In this document: positions 5,566-63,900 of the stretch, piece by piece
Layout of the letters: every line of letters begins with the position of its first letter
How positions within the stretch are numbered: the stretch's first letter is position 1
Assembly: GCA_964408085.1 (NCBI GenBank)
Contig: CAYOYB010000006.1
Coordinates: 70,444-134,443, forward strand
Reading direction: 5' to 3'
DNA: 64,000 nt
DNA from: an uncultured Muribaculaceae bacterium
GTDB taxonomy: Bacteria; Bacillota_I; Bacilli_A; RF39; UBA660
Notes under the pieces: model-generated
The model's database searches: none
What the model saw: only the letters and a program-made list of their open reading frames with translations
What the model was told of the DNA's origin: nothing
Position numbers and translations under genes: made by a program

Positions 5566-5680
5566 ATTAATATTTGTAAAATTAAAAATTTAAACGATAG
5601 TGTAAATTGTTTTGAGGATGGATACAAAAAAAGAAGACTTTTTATTAAAATGTAGTTGTACAAAACATTTCAATTTTCAT

Positions 5681-5706
5681 ATAAAAAAAGTGGCATTACA
5701 CCACTT
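5681..5706 (-). terminator. Rho-independent terminator downstream of 5807-6484
   Basis: Minus strand reads AAGTGG-TGTAATG-CCACTT followed by TTTTTTTAT (stem 5688-5693 / 5701-5706). Confidence 0.7.
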
Positions 5707-5806
5707 GGGAGATGTTTCACTTATAATACTCGAAGATTAGGGAAAAATTGATACACTTAGTCCTAAATGAACAAATAAAAAGTATAACATTAAGCTATAC
5801 TCGATC

Positions 5807-52355: not shown

Positions 52356-53108
52356 CTAACTTAATATTTTTGTTTTATTATCCTCAAGCACAATTGGTGT
52401 ACCAAATGATGCATAACAACCCTTTTCACCTTCATAATAAGAAATCTCGCATCTTACTGGTTCAGTATTAACATACAAAATAGCACCACCACCATACCAA
52501 TTAGATAAAACATCAGATTTACCATATGAAGAAATAGCAATACCAACTGCTTCATATCCATCATAGCCAATATGTTGAATAGTGTAATTTCTTGGATCTT
52601 TTATTGGAACTGATATAATATGTTCTCCTATTCCAAAATCCTTAGTACCATCATTATCTACATTATTATCTTTTTTTTCGTATCCTAGTGGTGTTCCAAA
52701 TTCATTATAGATATGCTCAGTCCCTTCGTCAAAGAAAGAATAACATTCTACAGGATATTCATTTGTATATAAAATGCAAGCACCACCAAAGTCTTTAAAA
52801 TGCTCGCCATAAGATGATGTTGCTATACCTACACATTTATATCCATCATAATAATCATATTGTCTATTTCCTATTGTAGGATCCTTAATTGGAACTGATA
52901 TAATATGTTCCCCAACATCAAAAACTTTTTTTATCCCTTCATAATCATTATGCGTTTGTTCAATTTGCGTTTCATCCAAAACATCTATATCTACATCACT
53001 TGAAGAACAACCTGCTAATGATGTAGTCATTGCAATAGCTAAAGATAGAGCCTTCAATCTAGTTTTAACACTAGGAGCACTAACACTTTTGAAATTATTA
53101 ATATTCAT
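52356..53108 (-). CDS. Lipoprotein with an internally duplicated domain
   Basis: Lipobox LSLAIAMTTSLAGCSS. Two ~85-aa repeats each begin F(D/G)(V/I)GEHIISVPIKDP and end FGTP(L/I). Confidence 0.7.
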   Translation of the reverse strand: MNINNFKSVSAPSVKTRLKALSLAIAMTTSLAGCSSSDVDIDVLDETQIEQTHNDYEGIKKVFDVGEHIISVPIKDPTIGNRQYDYYDGYKCVGIATSSYGEHFKDFGGACILYTNEYPVECYSFFDEGTEHIYNEFGTPLGYEKKDNNVDNDGTKDFGIGEHIISVPIKDPRNYTIQHIGYDGYEAVGIAISSYGKSDVLSNWYGGGAILYVNTEPVRCEISYYEGEKGCYASFGTPIVLEDNKTKILS

Positions 53109-53228
53109 AATACCCCCCTTTTCAATGTATATAGGTCGTATTTTAGCATTATTTTAGAAAAAAATCAATATTCTCAATTATAATATTTTAATTAAAAATA
53201 TATAAAGAAAATTTTTTTAACAAATCAT

Positions 53229-53287
53229 AAAAAAAGAATTCATTATAACTTCATTATTAACCTAATGCGACATCTAATACCATCATT
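53229..53287. repeat. Direct repeat DR-A: displaced copy of the ZIP-transporter 3' end plus terminator
   Basis: 57/59 identical (hand alignment) to 56248-56306. The mismatches are at 53239 and 53269. Confidence 0.9.
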
Positions 53288-53353
53288 TTTTAATGTTAAA
53301 TAAGCACAATTATCATCATATACTAAATAATATTTTTTTAACATAATAACAAT

Positions 53354-54349
53354 CTACTTAACAAACATTTTAGCACTGACTGCTTTTTCCAATCCATAAT
53401 TATTTTCGAAATTTTTTAAATATTGTCTTAAAAAATAAATCTTATCCAAATTATTATCAAAAACTAAATCGACAAATTCTAATGCATTTTTTAAATCAAC
53501 ATTATTATATAAATGCTCACGTCCATAATACCCATAGTCTTCTTTTCCTAATTTATAATCTAAAAATTCTTCATTCATTACTTTATCTTTGGAAGCAACA
53601 AGCATCTTAGCAAATGTATTAATATTATTCTGCCATATTACTGCATTAGTTGTAGCATTTGGGCTTCTAAATTCTATAGTATTCATATAATGACATTCAG
53701 TTAAATTATCAAATTCAACATTATCTAAATTTAAGGCATCATATTTATCTGTTATTATTGCAGAACTAATATTACTTATAGTTTTTGCGTTATTAATTTC
53801 ATCCAATATTTTGGATAATTTATATGCTACTGGGTAAGCAAACTTAAGCAGGCTTTCTCTTCCACTTATCTTATCACCATAAGCAAATCTAAATAATACA
53901 TTTTCATAAATGATATATAATTTAAGGAAATGTTTCCATGCTTCAACATCATTACCTAATACGCAAGCACCTATATGTATATGTCCACCTGCTTTATGTA
54001 ATGTATCAGCCTTTTCTTTAGTAAGTTGATTACAAATCATTTGTAATTCTTCCCAGTATTCTTGTTTATCTGTCATTATTGGTGAGCTAATCTCTCCACC
54101 AGAATCTAAAGAAAGATCGACTTTAGATTCCCAACGAGTAAAATTATTTTCAATATATTCATCCATGCATATCGTTTTAATTTCTTCATACTCTATTTCA
54201 ACACCAAATGTAACATTTTCTGGTAGATTTAAATTATCCCTATACTCTAAAAAATAACTTTCAGTTTCAACCAGCAATTCTTGTAAATCTAGCCCTCTTA
54301 AAAAAGCAAAATTGTCATTTTTATTTAAACTTAAAAATTTTTCAGTCAT
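53354..54349 (-). CDS. Amidoligase_2-type (glutamine synthetase/GCS2-like fold) putative ATP-dependent amidoligase
   Basis: 331 aa. FGVEIEYEE, SGGEISSPIM, HKAGGHIHIGA and MNTIEFRSPNATTN follow the order of conserved blocks in the Amidoligase_2 family (GVEiE ... E.vSP ... GlHvHvg ... tiEFR). No TM helix. Confidence 0.6.
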   Translation of the reverse strand: MTEKFLSLNKNDNFAFLRGLDLQELLVETESYFLEYRDNLNLPENVTFGVEIEYEEIKTICMDEYIENNFTRWESKVDLSLDSGGEISSPIMTDKQEYWEELQMICNQLTKEKADTLHKAGGHIHIGACVLGNDVEAWKHFLKLYIIYENVLFRFAYGDKISGRESLLKFAYPVAYKLSKILDEINNAKTISNISSAIITDKYDALNLDNVEFDNLTECHYMNTIEFRSPNATTNAVIWQNNINTFAKMLVASKDKVMNEEFLDYKLGKEDYGYYGREHLYNNVDLKNALEFVDLVFDNNLDKIYFLRQYLKNFENNYGLEKAVSAKMFVK

Positions 54350-54362
54350 TTTTAAATACCTT

Positions 54363-55223
54363 CTATATTTTTCTTAATCTATAAGGATAACCTTTATTTT
54401 CATCAATATTTTCTAATGTTTCATCCAACATTGCCAAATTTTGCTTTTTTAACATAAGAATTTTTTTCATTTTCTCTAAATTTTCTTTATCAATCATTTC
54501 AAGAGAAAATTCATATTTTCTTAGTCGATTTTTAATTCGATTTTTAATCAAAAGTTTTTCTATAACTTTAATACCTAGCCCACAGAGTAAAGATTGGACA
54601 ATATACCACATAGAATGTTTTATATTTTCCCCTGCTGTTTCTGGTCTAACAACAAATTCTTCTTTCGATTCAGTATGATTAATAACAATAAGTGCATCTG
54701 AATCATATATTTTGTCTTCTGGTGTTAGTGAATTTTTGCAAATTGTTTTAATATTAGTAACAACTAATATGTTTTCAATTTCTGCCTTTGACATAGATAA
54801 TATTTTTTGTGTATCAGCAAGATCAATATCATTGCTTATTCTATAAGAGGTAACAGTTCTCTCATATAATCCTAGGTTATTAGTAATCCAACCTGTTGAA
54901 TACTCTATTAACTCAGTATCATAATCTAAATCATAAGATATATTTTCTAAATGAATCCCACTAGAAGTATCAATTGTTTCAATACAAGCTTTATCAATTA
55001 CATTATCAATATTAAATGGTGCATTTCCATTTAAAGATTGTAAATTAGCAATAATAATTGATGAAAATATGAATGGTAATAAATAGTCAATAGCTATACC
55101 ACTTTTAACTAATGATTTCATTATAAAAATACGTGTGCTAGACATGTCTTTTTGTTTTATTTCATTTTCTAATTCTTTCATGTCACTATAAAGATTATTA
55201 ACTAAAGAATTGCGACTATTCAT
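54363..55223 (-). CDS. Bitopic/hairpin membrane protein with N- and C-terminal coiled coils (286 aa)
   Basis: TM1 GIAIDYLLPFIFSSIIIANL, a ~140-aa intervening domain, TM2 MWYIVQSLLCGLGIKVI, then a basic/coiled-coil tail. The start overlaps the upstream stop by 1 nt (TAATG at 55221-55225). Confidence 0.5.
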   Translation of the reverse strand: MNSRNSLVNNLYSDMKELENEIKQKDMSSTRIFIMKSLVKSGIAIDYLLPFIFSSIIIANLQSLNGNAPFNIDNVIDKACIETIDTSSGIHLENISYDLDYDTELIEYSTGWITNNLGLYERTVTSYRISNDIDLADTQKILSMSKAEIENILVVTNIKTICKNSLTPEDKIYDSDALIVINHTESKEEFVVRPETAGENIKHSMWYIVQSLLCGLGIKVIEKLLIKNRIKNRLRKYEFSLEMIDKENLEKMKKILMLKKQNLAMLDETLENIDENKGYPYRLRKI

Positions 55224-56110
55224 TAGATTTTACCTCCATTATTTATTGTTAGAGATAAAATCTTTTCTTTAGTATCCTCTAGTTCTTTTTGAAGAGATTT
55301 TATTAAAGTAATGTTTTCTCTATAATGACAATTTATATTTTCTAATTCCTCTAAAAATTTAGATTTCTTAGCATATGCCACTAAACCACCAATACCTAAC
55401 CCAAGAACTAACTCAATAATAGTAACGACTGTATTTTTTAAATCAGTTTCTTGATACTTTAAAACATCATTTTTATCTAACACATGTAAATTTGCATCAA
55501 AAAAATAGTCGTTTTTTTCTTCTAGGTATATTTCATTTACAACTTGTTTTTCTTCCTTATAAGTATTTAAATTTTCAAAAATATAATTATAGTCTCCATT
55601 CGCAATGGCATTATATAAATCCAATGTTGCTAATTTAGCAATATCATAATTTCTTTTAAATCTGACATACTGTCCATCTTTGAACTCCCATGGTGTATAG
55701 ACAACTAAACTATTTGAAGGTAATGGATCATCAAACCATCTTCGCTGCGTATATTCATTATCCATAGTTACATAACCATTTTTTTGATATTCCATATTAT
55801 ACAATTTATATTTAGTTATTTCATCTAAATGAAATGGTAATCCGCCATAAAAAAGCCAAAAAGTACCTATTGTAATTCCTGTAGAAATTACAAATGGCGT
55901 AAGGAATTTACAAGTATTAGCAAATACTTTTAAGTTTCTTATATTAAACTGTTTAAAATTTTCTTTCTTTTGAAGTTTAATTTTTGATTCGAATTCAAGA
56001 ACTTTTGACTTTAATGCTTCTAATTCTTTAATTTTTGCTTCGCGAATTTCACTTTTTCTCTTTTCAGCAAGAATTTTTTGTTTACGTGTCTTTCTCTTTC
56101 TATTACTCAT
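55223..56110 (-). CDS. Bitopic/hairpin membrane protein with N- and C-terminal coiled coils (295 aa)
   Basis: Very basic N-terminus MSNRKRKTRKQKILAEKRKSEIREAKIKELEALKSK. TM1 FLTPFVISTGITIGTFWLFYGG, a ~135-aa domain, TM2 VVTIIELVLGLGIGGLVAYA, then a coiled-coil tail. The plan matches 54363-55223. Confidence 0.5.
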   Translation of the reverse strand: MSNRKRKTRKQKILAEKRKSEIREAKIKELEALKSKVLEFESKIKLQKKENFKQFNIRNLKVFANTCKFLTPFVISTGITIGTFWLFYGGLPFHLDEITKYKLYNMEYQKNGYVTMDNEYTQRRWFDDPLPSNSLVVYTPWEFKDGQYVRFKRNYDIAKLATLDLYNAIANGDYNYIFENLNTYKEEKQVVNEIYLEEKNDYFFDANLHVLDKNDVLKYQETDLKNTVVTIIELVLGLGIGGLVAYAKKSKFLEELENINCHYRENITLIKSLQKELEDTKEKILSLTINNGGKI

Positions 56111-59902: not shown

Positions 59903-60850
59903 TTACACCTCACTAACAAAATTTAATATATCAGTTTTTATATCTTCTATCTTTTCATAATAAATTATTTTCTTTATATTCCTACAACCTTTTACTAATC
60001 CAGAAATTTTGCTATCTTTATGTGCAATAACCAATATAGGAATACCTAAATTTACAGCCTCTTGCAATTCCATGCCTTGACCAGTTGATATATTACTCAT
60101 CTCTGCAATCATTAATTTGGTATTTCGTAACAATTGCATTGCTCTATCATACCTTTCAAAATCATTTCCTTTAAAATTGATAGTATCGATTGGACTTAGT
60201 ACTTCATATTTGTTACTATCAATTAATGATATTATTTTATTATATATTTCTACTAAATTACTATTAGTAGCTAATACTGCACCTGTTATCAAAATTGTAT
60301 TTTTAACATTTAATTTTTTTGTATAACATTTTATTTCTTTTTTACTAACTTCAGAAATTATACTGTTTCTAAATTGAAAATTTAGTTTTTTAATAATTTT
60401 TGGACTAATATTATTTTCAGAATAATGGCAAAGAACAGCTTCTTCAATACCATCCTCTTTTAATTTTTCAAGCATATATTCAGTTGACTTTAACGCATAA
60501 CCTTTTCCTCTTTTGGATGGTCTAATACCACAAGCAATATGACCAATTGTCTTAATTCCTAATGGTTTTAAATTATGTCTAATTTCACCCATTCCAATTA
60601 ATTCTTCCTCATCAAAAATAAAGTAAAAATCAGAACTTTCAAAATAATCTATATCATAATCAAACACATTGCCTTTACTATAGTCATCTACAACTTTTAA
60701 AACAGCAGCATAATCTAATTCTTCAATAGGATTATTACAATCATAATCAATTATACAAGGTACATATGGTCCACCATATTGTTGCCATTCTTTTATCATT
60801 TCTTTATACTTGTCTTTATGCTTAATTGTTGGTTTTACTAGTTTTATCAT
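59903..60850 (-). CDS. Fusion protein: N-terminal GNAT acetyltransferase + C-terminal nucleoside 2-deoxyribosyltransferase-like domain
   Basis: The first ~175 aa are GNAT-like (IGMGEIRHNL...GIRPSKRGKGYALKSTEYMLEKLKEDGIEEAVLCHYSENNISPKIIKKLNF). The last ~135 aa are NDT-like (NTILITGAV...LMIAEMSNISTGQGMELQEAVNLGIPILVIA). Confidence 0.55.
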   Translation of the reverse strand: MIKLVKPTIKHKDKYKEMIKEWQQYGGPYVPCIIDYDCNNPIEELDYAAVLKVVDDYSKGNVFDYDIDYFESSDFYFIFDEEELIGMGEIRHNLKPLGIKTIGHIACGIRPSKRGKGYALKSTEYMLEKLKEDGIEEAVLCHYSENNISPKIIKKLNFQFRNSIISEVSKKEIKCYTKKLNVKNTILITGAVLATNSNLVEIYNKIISLIDSNKYEVLSPIDTINFKGNDFERYDRAMQLLRNTKLMIAEMSNISTGQGMELQEAVNLGIPILVIAHKDSKISGLVKGCRNIKKIIYYEKIEDIKTDILNFVSEV

Positions 60851-61846: not shown

Positions 61847-61879
61847 ATAGATGAGAAATTAAAAGCTATTCTCACCTAT
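61847..61879 (-). terminator. Probable (weak) terminator after the reverse transcriptase gene
   Basis: Minus-strand RNA reads AUAGGUGAGAA-(11 nt)-UUCUCAUCUAU, an 11-bp stem with one G.U pair. The interrupted U tract UUCUUGU follows. Confidence 0.45.
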
Positions 61880-61942: not shown

Positions 61943-63538
61943 TTAATTACCATTATTTTTTTTGTTATATTCCTTTATAATATGTTCAACAAACAAATCA
62001 TTACAATTAATTTTCAAATCCTTTATAAATGGTCTATTTTCAGATTCACTCAGCCCATTAAGTACAATTCTTATAATTTGTCTTTTCTCCCAATTATCTG
62101 CTCTTAAATAATAATCCTTTATTTCTAAAATTTCTCCTCTAGTAAAATTAAATCCAATTTGTTCTAATATTGTACGTCCTATATAAATACCTGAGTTCCT
62201 TTTTAAACTTCTAAAAAAATCAAATAGAATTTTCTTTTCTTCATTATTACTGCAATCAAATAGATTAACTATACTAATCAATATATATTCAGGTACATTA
62301 AAATCATTTAACCAATATTCAAACTTAGATAATATAGAGGCATAATCTTTTTTATCTATATACTCTTTGTGTTTTAATATTACATCAGAATAATATGGAA
62401 TAAATTGTGGATATTTTTTTAAAATATCTGGAAATTGAACTAAATATTTAAATTTACTTTTAGCAACTATTATTTTTATCGTTCTTGTAACATCCAATGG
62501 ATCAATAATCATTTCTTTATTTAGTTTATCTAATAATATATTCTCATCCTCATTCTTTAACCTATTAACCTCACTTTGACTAAGTTTTCTAAATTTTGTT
62601 GGAACTACGCCAGAATACCCTCTTATTATTTCAAATAAACCTTCTTTATCACTTGATTTATTTTTACTTATTTTATCATAATAGTTTGAAATATCTCTGA
62701 ATTTTGTTTTACTTAAATTTATCGATAATCCATGCTTATTTAATATTTTAACAAACATTGTAATAATTCTATTAGCTTCATTTGAATCTGCAGCAAAAAA
62801 TCTGTAATCATCTACAAATCTACAAAATTTAACATTGTTTGATATCAAAAAGTTATCAATTTCTATTAAAAAGGCTTCTGCTAATATTCTAGATGCATTG
62901 GACCCAACAGGTAAACCATAAGAATCTCTATTAGCCCAAAACAATAACAACTGATCAATAGTATCTATTATTCTTTTATCAATTGTAGATATAGATAATA
63001 AAGTTGAATTTAATCTATGTATATTTAGTCTATCATAAAAATTTGAAATATCACACTCTATTATTATTTTATATTTTTTTCTAGAAGACAAATCTCGATA
63101 ATGTTTTTTAAAGGAAGAATAATTATATTTTTTATTAAATAACACACCTTTTTCATTAGGACAATATCTATATGAAAAAGCAATAGTTTTACCCACTCTT
63201 TCTCTTTCTACATTTGGTGCAATCAAACATACTAATGATAAATATTTTACTTCATCAATGATATCAATTAAAGCACATTTTCTAAAATCAAAATTATTTT
63301 TTTTAGGTACAAGCATATGAGAAATTTTATTTATTTTTAATTGTTCAAAATTACCATTATGATTGATTATATTATCTAAAATTGAAACAACTACATTAAT
63401 TACTTGATTCTGAAATTCTTTATCCTTTAAAAAATTTATTTCAAAGGGTTTTCTAAATAAAGAGACATCAGTACACCCTTCTAAAATTATATTAGCAATA
63501 GCTATTTTTACACATTTTCTTATTTCATTTCTTTTCAT
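61943..63538 (-). CDS. Reverse transcriptase, stand-alone, with a ~250-aa all-helical C-terminal extension (UG/Abi-like, class unassigned)
   Basis: 531 aa. RT motifs in order: HMLVPKKNNFDFRKCALI (1/2), IIIECDISNFYDRLN (A, Asp163), GLPVGSNASRILAEAFL (B), FCRFVDDYRFFA (C, VDD at nt 62807-62815), GLSINLSKTKF (D/E). AGGAGA RBS. Confidence 0.85.
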   Translation of the reverse strand: MKRNEIRKCVKIAIANIILEGCTDVSLFRKPFEINFLKDKEFQNQVINVVVSILDNIINHNGNFEQLKINKISHMLVPKKNNFDFRKCALIDIIDEVKYLSLVCLIAPNVERERVGKTIAFSYRYCPNEKGVLFNKKYNYSSFKKHYRDLSSRKKYKIIIECDISNFYDRLNIHRLNSTLLSISTIDKRIIDTIDQLLLFWANRDSYGLPVGSNASRILAEAFLIEIDNFLISNNVKFCRFVDDYRFFAADSNEANRIITMFVKILNKHGLSINLSKTKFRDISNYYDKISKNKSSDKEGLFEIIRGYSGVVPTKFRKLSQSEVNRLKNEDENILLDKLNKEMIIDPLDVTRTIKIIVAKSKFKYLVQFPDILKKYPQFIPYYSDVILKHKEYIDKKDYASILSKFEYWLNDFNVPEYILISIVNLFDCSNNEEKKILFDFFRSLKRNSGIYIGRTILEQIGFNFTRGEILEIKDYYLRADNWEKRQIIRIVLNGLSESENRPFIKDLKINCNDLFVEHIIKEYNKKNNGN

Positions 63539-63555
63539 TTTTATCTCCTACTACT

Positions 63556-63610
63556 AAAAAACGCCAGTACAAAAAATTATAAAATATAAGCCTGTACTAG
63601 CGTTTTTTTT
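63556..63610 (-). other. Large hairpin in the RT 5' leader (terminator/attenuator-like or RT-bound RNA element)
   Basis: Minus-strand RNA reads AAAAAACGCUAGUAC-(21-nt loop)-GUACUGGCGUUUUUU. The 10-bp GC-containing core includes one G.U pair. On the plus strand that position is a C-A mismatch, so the element is minus-sense. It ends 12 nt before the RBS. Confidence 0.55.
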
Positions 63611-63622
63611 CTTTTTGGCTAT

Positions 63623-63631
63623 ATTATAACA
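63623..63631 (-). promoter_or_regulatory. Extended -10 promoter element upstream of the RT leader
   Basis: Minus strand reads TGTTATAAT (reverse complement of 63623-63631). No good -35. Confidence 0.4.
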
Positions 63632-63782: not shown

Positions 63783-63812
63783 AAAAAAATATCCCAGTCT
63801 TTCGACTGGGAT
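63783..63812 (-). terminator. Strong rho-independent terminator ~250 nt upstream of the RT
   Basis: Minus strand reads AUCCCAGUC-GAAA-GACUGGGAU (9-bp stem, GNRA loop) followed by AUUUUUUUAU. Confidence 0.8.
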
Positions 63813-63900
63813 TTCAGGGGGCGGTTAGAGTTCACGCACTTCAAAGTTTAATTAAGTACTTTTACCTTTATTTTAATAAGATTTAAAATACTTAAATTTA
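63783..63900 (-). ncRNA. Candidate small/non-coding RNA 3' portion (C-rich single-stranded segment plus terminator)
   Basis: No ORF in any frame between 63813 and 64000. A GC-rich island GAAGUGCGUGAACUCUAACCGCCCCCUGAA sits immediately 5' of the terminator, within otherwise >85% AT sequence. The 5' end is undefined and may lie beyond the window. Confidence 0.3.

Follow-up and report, generated by a model that had tools for sequence, protein, structure and literature searches.

The window analysed here, that is the whole stretch of 64,000 nucleotides (64 kb) taken from contig CAYOYB010000006.1 of an uncultured Muribaculaceae bacterium (assembly GCA_964408085.1, positions 70,444 to 134,443), corresponds to ordinary chromosome and encodes, among others, ParC/GyrA-like, transketolase, RNase J, MutL and ProRS proteins. 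It also carries a stand-alone reverse transcriptase (RT) gene, which is the subject of this report. A preliminary description, made from the letters of the window, had defined this gene as an ORF of 531 aa starting with ATG on the minus strand (61943-63538) and coding for an apparently active palm; both points were confirmed, the catalytic Asp163 occurring in a CDISNFYD motif and FVDD being found at residues 241-244. Upstream of the RT gene are located a divergent DUF3892 gene and a NUDIX gene, while a DDAH/ADI-like gene, a GNAT fusion, an unknown gene and a hybrid kinase, all present as previously described, are found downstream together with a ZIP transporter. The GC content of the RT gene is 22.4% as compared to 25.4% for the window. 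Since its product departs from the consensus at only one of the 90 columns with a conservation of 94% or more in its own clade (see below), the window RT shows no sign of decay; as judged from its sequence, it is intact, has its catalytic residues and is apparently active. Database entries with the identical protein exist for a 135-kb contig at NCBI and for two Logan assemblies.

Searching PADLOC-DB with the RT product resulted in a match to the Drt8 profile that runs from end to end (393 bits, E 7.2e-118, with residues 7-524 aligned on profile positions 4-489 of 493). The runner-up model, UG21, reached 123 bits (E 4e-36), leaving Drt8 with a margin of 270 bits, and the Drt4 and Drt6 profiles gave only 69-79 bits. 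Drt8 corresponds to the group UG7, or defence-associated reverse transcriptase (DRT) type 8, of Mestre et al. 2022 (PMC9226505), in which two variants congruent with the phylogeny were described: 150 of the 385 members occur with a PD-(D/E)XK nuclease gene and 165 have no associated gene. The validated DRT8, which belongs to variant 1 and was assayed in E. coli against phage T5, required the active sites of both the RT and the nuclease (PMC9226505). When the clade of the window RT was compared by hhalign with the nuclease-associated UG7 clade, homology extended over 500 columns (probability 100%, E 1.7e-62); for the window RT it is full-length and includes the C-terminal helical domain. The group is also densely populated: clusters at 90% identity that score above 500 bits number more than 120, and those at 50% identity with E<=1e-30 number 137. 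The preliminary description had regarded the class of this RT as one that could not be assigned by eye, and the gene as perhaps representing a new or poorly sampled group. Neither view holds, as the Drt8 profile and the alignment to bona fide UG7 members assign the class, and UG7 is, on these sequence comparisons, a known, named and well sampled family of which the gene is an ordinary further member and not a new class.

The distribution of the nuclease partner was addressed in a survey of homologues that was limited to one genome per species and that returned 80 loci. Among these, 55 loci, including that of the window, correspond to full-length matches with 40-67% identity, and a conserved neighbouring gene was looked for at these 55 loci but not found. 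Another 22 loci with ca. 32% identity are of the nuclease type: in 19 of them, a gene of 229-287 aa overlaps the RT stop codon or directly follows it, its product matches the PADLOC RTasPDDEXK profile at 1e-60 to 1e-66, and the RTs encoded next to it score 525-558 bits on Drt8. A profile of this nuclease partner, run against all reading frames, gave no hit at E<=10 in the 64-kb window, in the extra upstream DNA of the window's own locus (L001) or within 6 kb of the RT in 54 loci of the clade. In a joint alignment, 51 partner-less and 19 nuclease-associated RTs formed two monophyletic groups, and the window RT, which falls into the partner-less one, displays 37-66% identity to its own clade as opposed to 21-25% to the nuclease clade. 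The gene directly downstream of the window RT being DDAH/ADI-like, the adjacent nuclease that characterises variant 1 does not occur here. Because of the two monophyletic clades, the lack of a partner in the window and the 500-column homology, the window RT is best placed in a partner-less variant of UG7. Other genes that tightly follow an RT in the partner-less clade were considered as hidden partners and rejected, as they are unrelated to each other (PEP carboxylase, type I R subunit, ADH, RhuM and methyltransferase). Partner-less relatives have surroundings of defence-island type, and their neighbours include type I, IIG and ISP restriction-modification systems, OLD/GajA-like ATPases, AbiL, AriA and LmuB. 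No close homologue was found in the phage and plasmid collections, in which the top hit, located on a Caballeronia megaplasmid, reached only 29.5% and the phage matches concerned palms of Abi-P2 type in P2 phages; a scan of JGI metagenomes for close relatives yielded one irrelevant match.

Overall, there is good reason to consider the window gene as a class 1 UG/Abi RT of group UG7 (DRT type 8) that belongs to the nuclease-less clade ("variant 2") and represents a single-gene anti-phage candidate, for which protein-primed, untemplated DNA synthesis is proposed by analogy. This agrees with the stand-alone RT of UG/Abi defence type, without adjacent partner, that had been suspected from the outset, and it is sustained both by the Drt8 profile and by fold matches to class 1 enzymes (see below). 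At the level of the family, the gene could be assigned with confidence to a class whose partners are known, an outcome that counts against the preliminary description, while this particular copy sits in the partner-less branch. The features of the gene and of its flanking sequences are listed in Table 1.

Table 1. Features of the RT locus, and of the ATPase genes found next to related RTs
Feature	Position	Strand	Evidence
RT gene, complete, 531 aa, ATG start; UG7/DRT type 8, partner-less clade	61943..63538	minus	ORF; PADLOC Drt8; hhalign to nuclease-associated UG7
RT palm/fingers core, residues 145-281	62696..63106	minus	Pfam RVT_1, 1.4e-16
Motif A, catalytic Asp163 in CDISNFYD (residues 162-169)	63050..63052	minus	kept in at least 90% of the partner-less and at least 85% of the nuclease-associated clade
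Motif C, FVDD, residues 241-244, catalytic Asp243 and Asp244	62807..62818	minus	each of the four residues kept in at least 90% of the partner-less and at least 85% of the nuclease-associated clade
FSYR motif, residues 121-124, with invariant Tyr123 (putative priming tyrosine of the palm)	63167..63178	minus	Tyr123 100% in both UG7 clades
Flexible linker, residues 291-310, at the junction of RT and helical domain, with invariant Tyr308 (second putative priming residue)	62609..62668	minus	pLDDT <50; Tyr308 100% in both clades
C-terminal alpha-helical repeat (alphaRep-like) domain, residues 321-529	61952..62578	minus	13 helices in predicted structure
Extended -10 promoter element TGTTATAAT	63623..63631	minus	read from sequence
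5' leader hairpin between promoter and ribosome-binding site; A-tract before, 16-18-bp stem, U-tract after; terminator-shaped	63556..63608	minus	-22.1 kcal/mol, z -3.4
Ribosome-binding site AGGAG, 6 nt 5' of ATG	63545..63549	minus	read from sequence
Weak 3' hairpin past the stop codon, 8-bp stem, no T-run	61850..61876	minus	z -1.5, whole segment folded
ATPase genes of related loci (not in window)	L003:7601-8881, L004:7592-8881, L083:3377-4642, L087:6601-7890, L089:6602-7885, L092:5601-6875

The long helical C-terminal domain previously estimated at about 250 residues was recovered by structure prediction with a length of ca. 210 aa. The AlphaFold2 model, for which an alignment of 27 sequences served as input, has a mean predicted local distance difference test (pLDDT) score of 85.1 and a predicted template modelling (pTM) score of 0.83, and consists of an RT domain, a disordered linker and an all-helical part spanning residues 321-529. 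When this model was compared with the PDB by Foldseek, the top matches were DRT6, DRT4/UG15, Abi-P2, AbiA and AbiK, with E-values of 1e-11 to 1e-10 and TM scores of 0.41-0.51, both domains being aligned; no DRT8 structure is present in the PDB. Sequence comparison likewise designated Abi-P2 (3e-12), DRT4/UG15 (2e-11) and AbiK as the nearest PDB entries. Modelled alone, the C-terminal domain (pLDDT 90) resembles solenoids of the PUF, HEAT, ARM and HAT types with TM scores of 0.4-0.54 and weak E-values of 0.05-0.4, which fits a HEAT-like repeat domain and is unspecific: this search returned generic alpha-solenoids only and did not specifically recover the helical domains of Abi or DRT proteins. 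The predicted structure as a whole displays an alphaRep-type domain fused to the C-terminal side of the RT, as found in class 1 UG/Abi enzymes.

Several known systems share this organisation to different degrees. DRT8 variant 1 is matched by the same Drt8 profile from end to end and has in common with the window RT the residues D163, FVDD, FSYR, Y308 and W483/E484/R486, but it differs by its low identity (21-25%), by forming a separate monophyletic clade and by a downstream nuclease gene that is absent from the window. DRT4 (UG15) and DRT6 (UG12) are also single-gene systems composed of an RT and an alphaRep domain and provide the best structural matches (9wy8, 9vdo, 9vdv and 9l9s), although they belong to other UG groups and share only ca. 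15% identity with the window RT. Finally, AbiK, Abi-P2 and AbiA have the same bilobal arrangement of an RT-like and a helical domain, and, of all solved structures, that of Abi-P2 is the closest in sequence (E 3e-12); these proteins are nevertheless distant in sequence and have their priming residues elsewhere, and AbiA contains an extra HEPN domain.

In the class 1 systems described to date, DNA synthesis does not depend on a nucleic-acid template and mostly starts from a tyrosine of the enzyme itself, and the helical domain grips the nascent strand and mediates the formation of trimers or hexamers (PMC9508834, PMC12783706, PMC13174585). DRT4 primes from Tyr125 in the palm subdomain, its product is stabilised by a phage DNA-binding protein and the accumulating DNA kills the cell, while AbiA primes from Tyr298 or Tyr303, in a linker equivalent to that of the window RT (PMC12783706). 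Across 70 UG7 RTs representing both clades, three tyrosines are invariant (Tyr123, Tyr168 and Tyr308) and two are nearly so, namely Tyr207 (98% and 95% in the two clades) and Tyr245 (88% and 100%). Of these, Tyr123 is located in the palm at a position similar to that of Tyr125 in DRT4, and Tyr308 of the linker parallels Tyr298/303 of AbiA. By analogy with AbiK, Abi-P2, AbiA, DRT4, DRT6, DRT1 and DRT3b, protein-primed and untemplated DNA synthesis resulting in abortive infection would be the most likely mechanism. In this scheme, transcription would start from the extended -10 promoter and read through the terminator-like leader hairpin, probably giving a low basal expression; the protein would oligomerise via its helical domain and polymerise DNA without a nucleic-acid template, primed on its own Tyr123 or Tyr308, the growing strand being held by the helical domain. 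Upon infection, a phage factor would let this DNA accumulate or act, and growth of the infected cell would be arrested.

A number of observations weigh against this scheme or limit its extent. Since the validated DRT8 depended on the active site of its nuclease, the autonomy of the partner-less clade is an assumption, and a 2026 review lists DRT8 with "mechanism not yet established", as for DRT1 and DRT5 (PMC13213688). Class 1 products vary, being random, semirandom or, in DRT3b, poly-dCdA, so that the DNA product of the window RT is not predictable. A residue-level alignment of Tyr123 to Tyr125 of DRT4 was not obtained with HMMER, whose alignment covers only the region from motif B to motif D. 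Finally, the immediate neighbours of the window RT are not defence genes, and about half of its closest relatives carry a coupled ATPase gene for which the window copy has no counterpart.

This ATPase gene occurs in the sub-clade that is closest to the window RT and that comprises 13 distinct RTs with 61-74% identity. In six of the 13, the RT stop codon is followed after 4-5 nt by a gene encoding an ABC-type ATPase of 421-429 aa (Table 1), and the genes around these RT-ATPase pairs differ between the six loci. The products match the Pfam families AAA_15, AAA_21 and DUF2813, and their matches to AriA, GajA, Old and AbiLi are only partial and restricted to the N-terminal part. They have in common with ATPases of OLD, Gabija GajA, PARIS AriA and AbiL type an N-terminal ABC-ATPase region with a Walker A motif, but differ from these in that family matches are only partial and no TOPRIM domain was detected. 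The seven other members of the sub-clade, including the window RT, do not carry the ATPase gene; they are scattered over the sub-clade tree and all of them have a full-length RT ORF. At one locus (L096, about 5593-5720), a decayed 5' end of the ATPase gene survives (z = 19), and ATPase and RT identities correlate with each other (r = 0.55). From these sequence patterns, the ATPase seems to accompany the RT facultatively and to have been lost repeatedly. Mestre et al. 2022 make no mention of the RT-ATPase pairing, which may represent an undescribed two-gene subtype of DRT8.

The same pairing raises the question of whether the window RT could be a crippled leftover of an RT and ABC-ATPase cassette, in which the ATPase was needed ancestrally and has been lost here, leaving the RT to decay. 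The tight spacing of the six pairs in varied genomic contexts, the remnant at L096, which indicates that ATPase loss does occur, and the correlated identities would all be compatible with such a history, but we consider it improbable, as the window RT is intact at all but one of its 90 conserved columns, as the seven ATPase-less members are dispersed over the tree with RT ORFs of full length, and as the wider partner-less clade (51 RTs) generally has no ATPase. Neither was a remnant of the ATPase gene found in the window: tblastn detected nothing, and a putative deletion scar at the 'TAAATGATT' junction was rejected because the 202-nt spacer compared with the six ATPase loci gave alignments that were no better than those of shuffled sequences (z -1.6 to 0.9), while the positive control, L096, reached a z of 19.

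An autonomous RT would also be at variance with an alternative in which the effector step would take more than DNA synthesis and the RT acts together with a nuclease, or another effector, encoded in trans. The requirement of the validated DRT8 for its PD-(D/E)XK active site lends some weight to this alternative, and a nuclease acting in trans was raised for variant 2 by Mestre et al. (PMC9226505). It is, however, slightly less probable still than a crippled cassette, since RTasPDDEXK-like ORFs were looked for in vain in the 64-kb window and up to 6 kb from 54 related RTs, and since the single-gene class 1 systems DRT4 and DRT6 function alone (PMC12783706).

As for the expression signals, the preliminary description had credited the gene with its own extended -10 promoter, a structured leader and a hairpin terminator. 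The first two were found again, while the supposed terminator past the stop codon is only the weak hairpin, devoid of a T-run, listed in Table 1. The TGnTATAAT box of the promoter is found at the same position in L003, L004 and L018. The leader hairpin has a sequence homologue in L083, the closest relative, and because the upstream gene is divergent in L083, the hairpin can be attributed to the RT transcript. Of the 13 loci that make up the close sub-clade, 7-9 have a hairpin followed by a U-tract in the interval that separates the -10 box from the ribosome-binding site. Its occurrence as a feature of the whole family was considered and rejected, terminator-like hairpins being detected in only 7 of 53 loci, which confines the feature to the closest sub-clade; the crude scan used for these 53 loci missed the hairpin of the window itself, in which the U-tract pairs with the A-tract. 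There is no room in the window leader for an alternative antiterminator structure, and the leader may act as a leaky terminator or attenuator, or else as a 5' stabiliser, that sets a low basal expression of the RT.

Two further elements were noted in the intergenic DNA upstream of the RT. About 250 nt upstream of the gene lies a GC-rich segment, after which come a strong hairpin of intrinsic-terminator type, ATCCCAGTC-GAAA-GACTGGGAT, and a T-run (window 63791-63850, minus strand; L001 1160-1215). This segment contains no ORF of 30 aa or more, has no Rfam match and is absent from the relatives examined; it may correspond to the end of an unannotated small RNA. The second element, located at L001 950-1017 (window 63989 onward and mostly past the window end), is a 19-nt inverted repeat, TTAGCTAGAAAAT...ATTTTCTAGCTAA, that is 89% complementary and encloses a smaller hairpin.

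These upstream structures bear on the possibility that the RT copies an RNA template, as do the class 2 systems DRT2, DRT9 and DRT10, the leader or a small upstream transcript being the non-coding RNA. A strong leader hairpin with a homologue in L083 and the GC-rich segment with its terminator on the same strand as the RT are what such a system might have, but the possibility is very slight: both the profile and the predicted fold are of class 1, whose enzymes are so far untemplated (PMC13174585), the leader is conserved only in the closest sub-clade and the upstream element is missing in the relatives examined. A conserved upstream non-coding RNA was likewise rejected as a family feature, as no Rfam match was obtained at gathering or permissive thresholds and as the upstream spacers of some relatives are reduced to 26-90 nt. 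When both strands of the 64-kb window were searched, no Rfam family (no tRNA, riboswitch or leader) reached its gathering score. The last alternative, an RT of retron, group II intron or diversity-generating retroelement type or a fragment thereof, is refuted by the tests run, in line with the preliminary description, since the palm region matches the group II and retron models only weakly and in part, far below the NCBIfam cut-offs (64 bits for TIGR04416 against 300, and 33 bits for the retron model against 235), Pfam gives only RVT_1 without maturase or endonuclease domain, NAxxH, VTG and IGNxxSQ are all absent, and neither an intron or retron RNA (Rfam) nor template/variable-region repeats were found.

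With regard to its genomic setting, no PADLOC match was obtained for the genes downstream of the RT, and the upstream NUDIX protein matches only the candidate model PDC-S07. Orthologues of the DDAH-like gene occur in L097 and L098 (88% and 81% identical), where no RT is found upstream and where the surroundings are of mobile-element and defence type and comprise TnpV, an integrase, a KAP NTPase and a methyltransferase; because the RT is missing upstream of this orthologue in two related genomes, the site it occupies in the window is strain-variable. In other related genomes, as well as in one of these two (L087, L088, L089 and L098), the region downstream of recG corresponds to a variable hotspot, whose cargo consists either of the RT-ATPase pair with other defence genes (HamA-family, methyltransferases and MazE) or of the DDAH-like gene with a KAP NTPase and a methyltransferase. 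In the window, the GNAT fusion is a protein of 315 aa (59903-60850, minus strand) that combines an N-terminal GNAT domain with a C-terminal part having a weak likeness to nucleoside 2-deoxyribosyltransferase (PF05014, E 0.0016), and it is followed by a protein of 210 aa without family match. Further away, four genes in a row that have an accessory appearance (52356-56110, minus strand) code for an Amidoligase_2 protein (53354-54349) and for three others, 250-295 aa in length, that match neither Pfam nor PADLOC models.

For the annotation of the source genome the result is routine, and the label fitting the gene should be DRT8/UG7-family defence reverse transcriptase. At the level of the family, we tentatively propose, as a hypothesis that we hold to be somewhat less than even, that partner-less UG7 RTs constitute an autonomous single-gene defence whose product and trigger would be unlike those of the nuclease-dependent DRT8, and that within them the gut-associated sub-clade of the window RT would form a facultative RT and ABC-ATPase subtype with a leaky leader terminator, in which the ATPase has been repeatedly lost without loss of the RT. 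The locus and its relatives provide compact candidates that have native promoters and two specific putative priming tyrosines, Tyr123 and Tyr308. The only DRT8 assayed to date needed its nuclease, and the existence of a large partner-less clade raises the question of whether DNA synthesis alone may be the effector in this family, as in DRT4 and DRT6.

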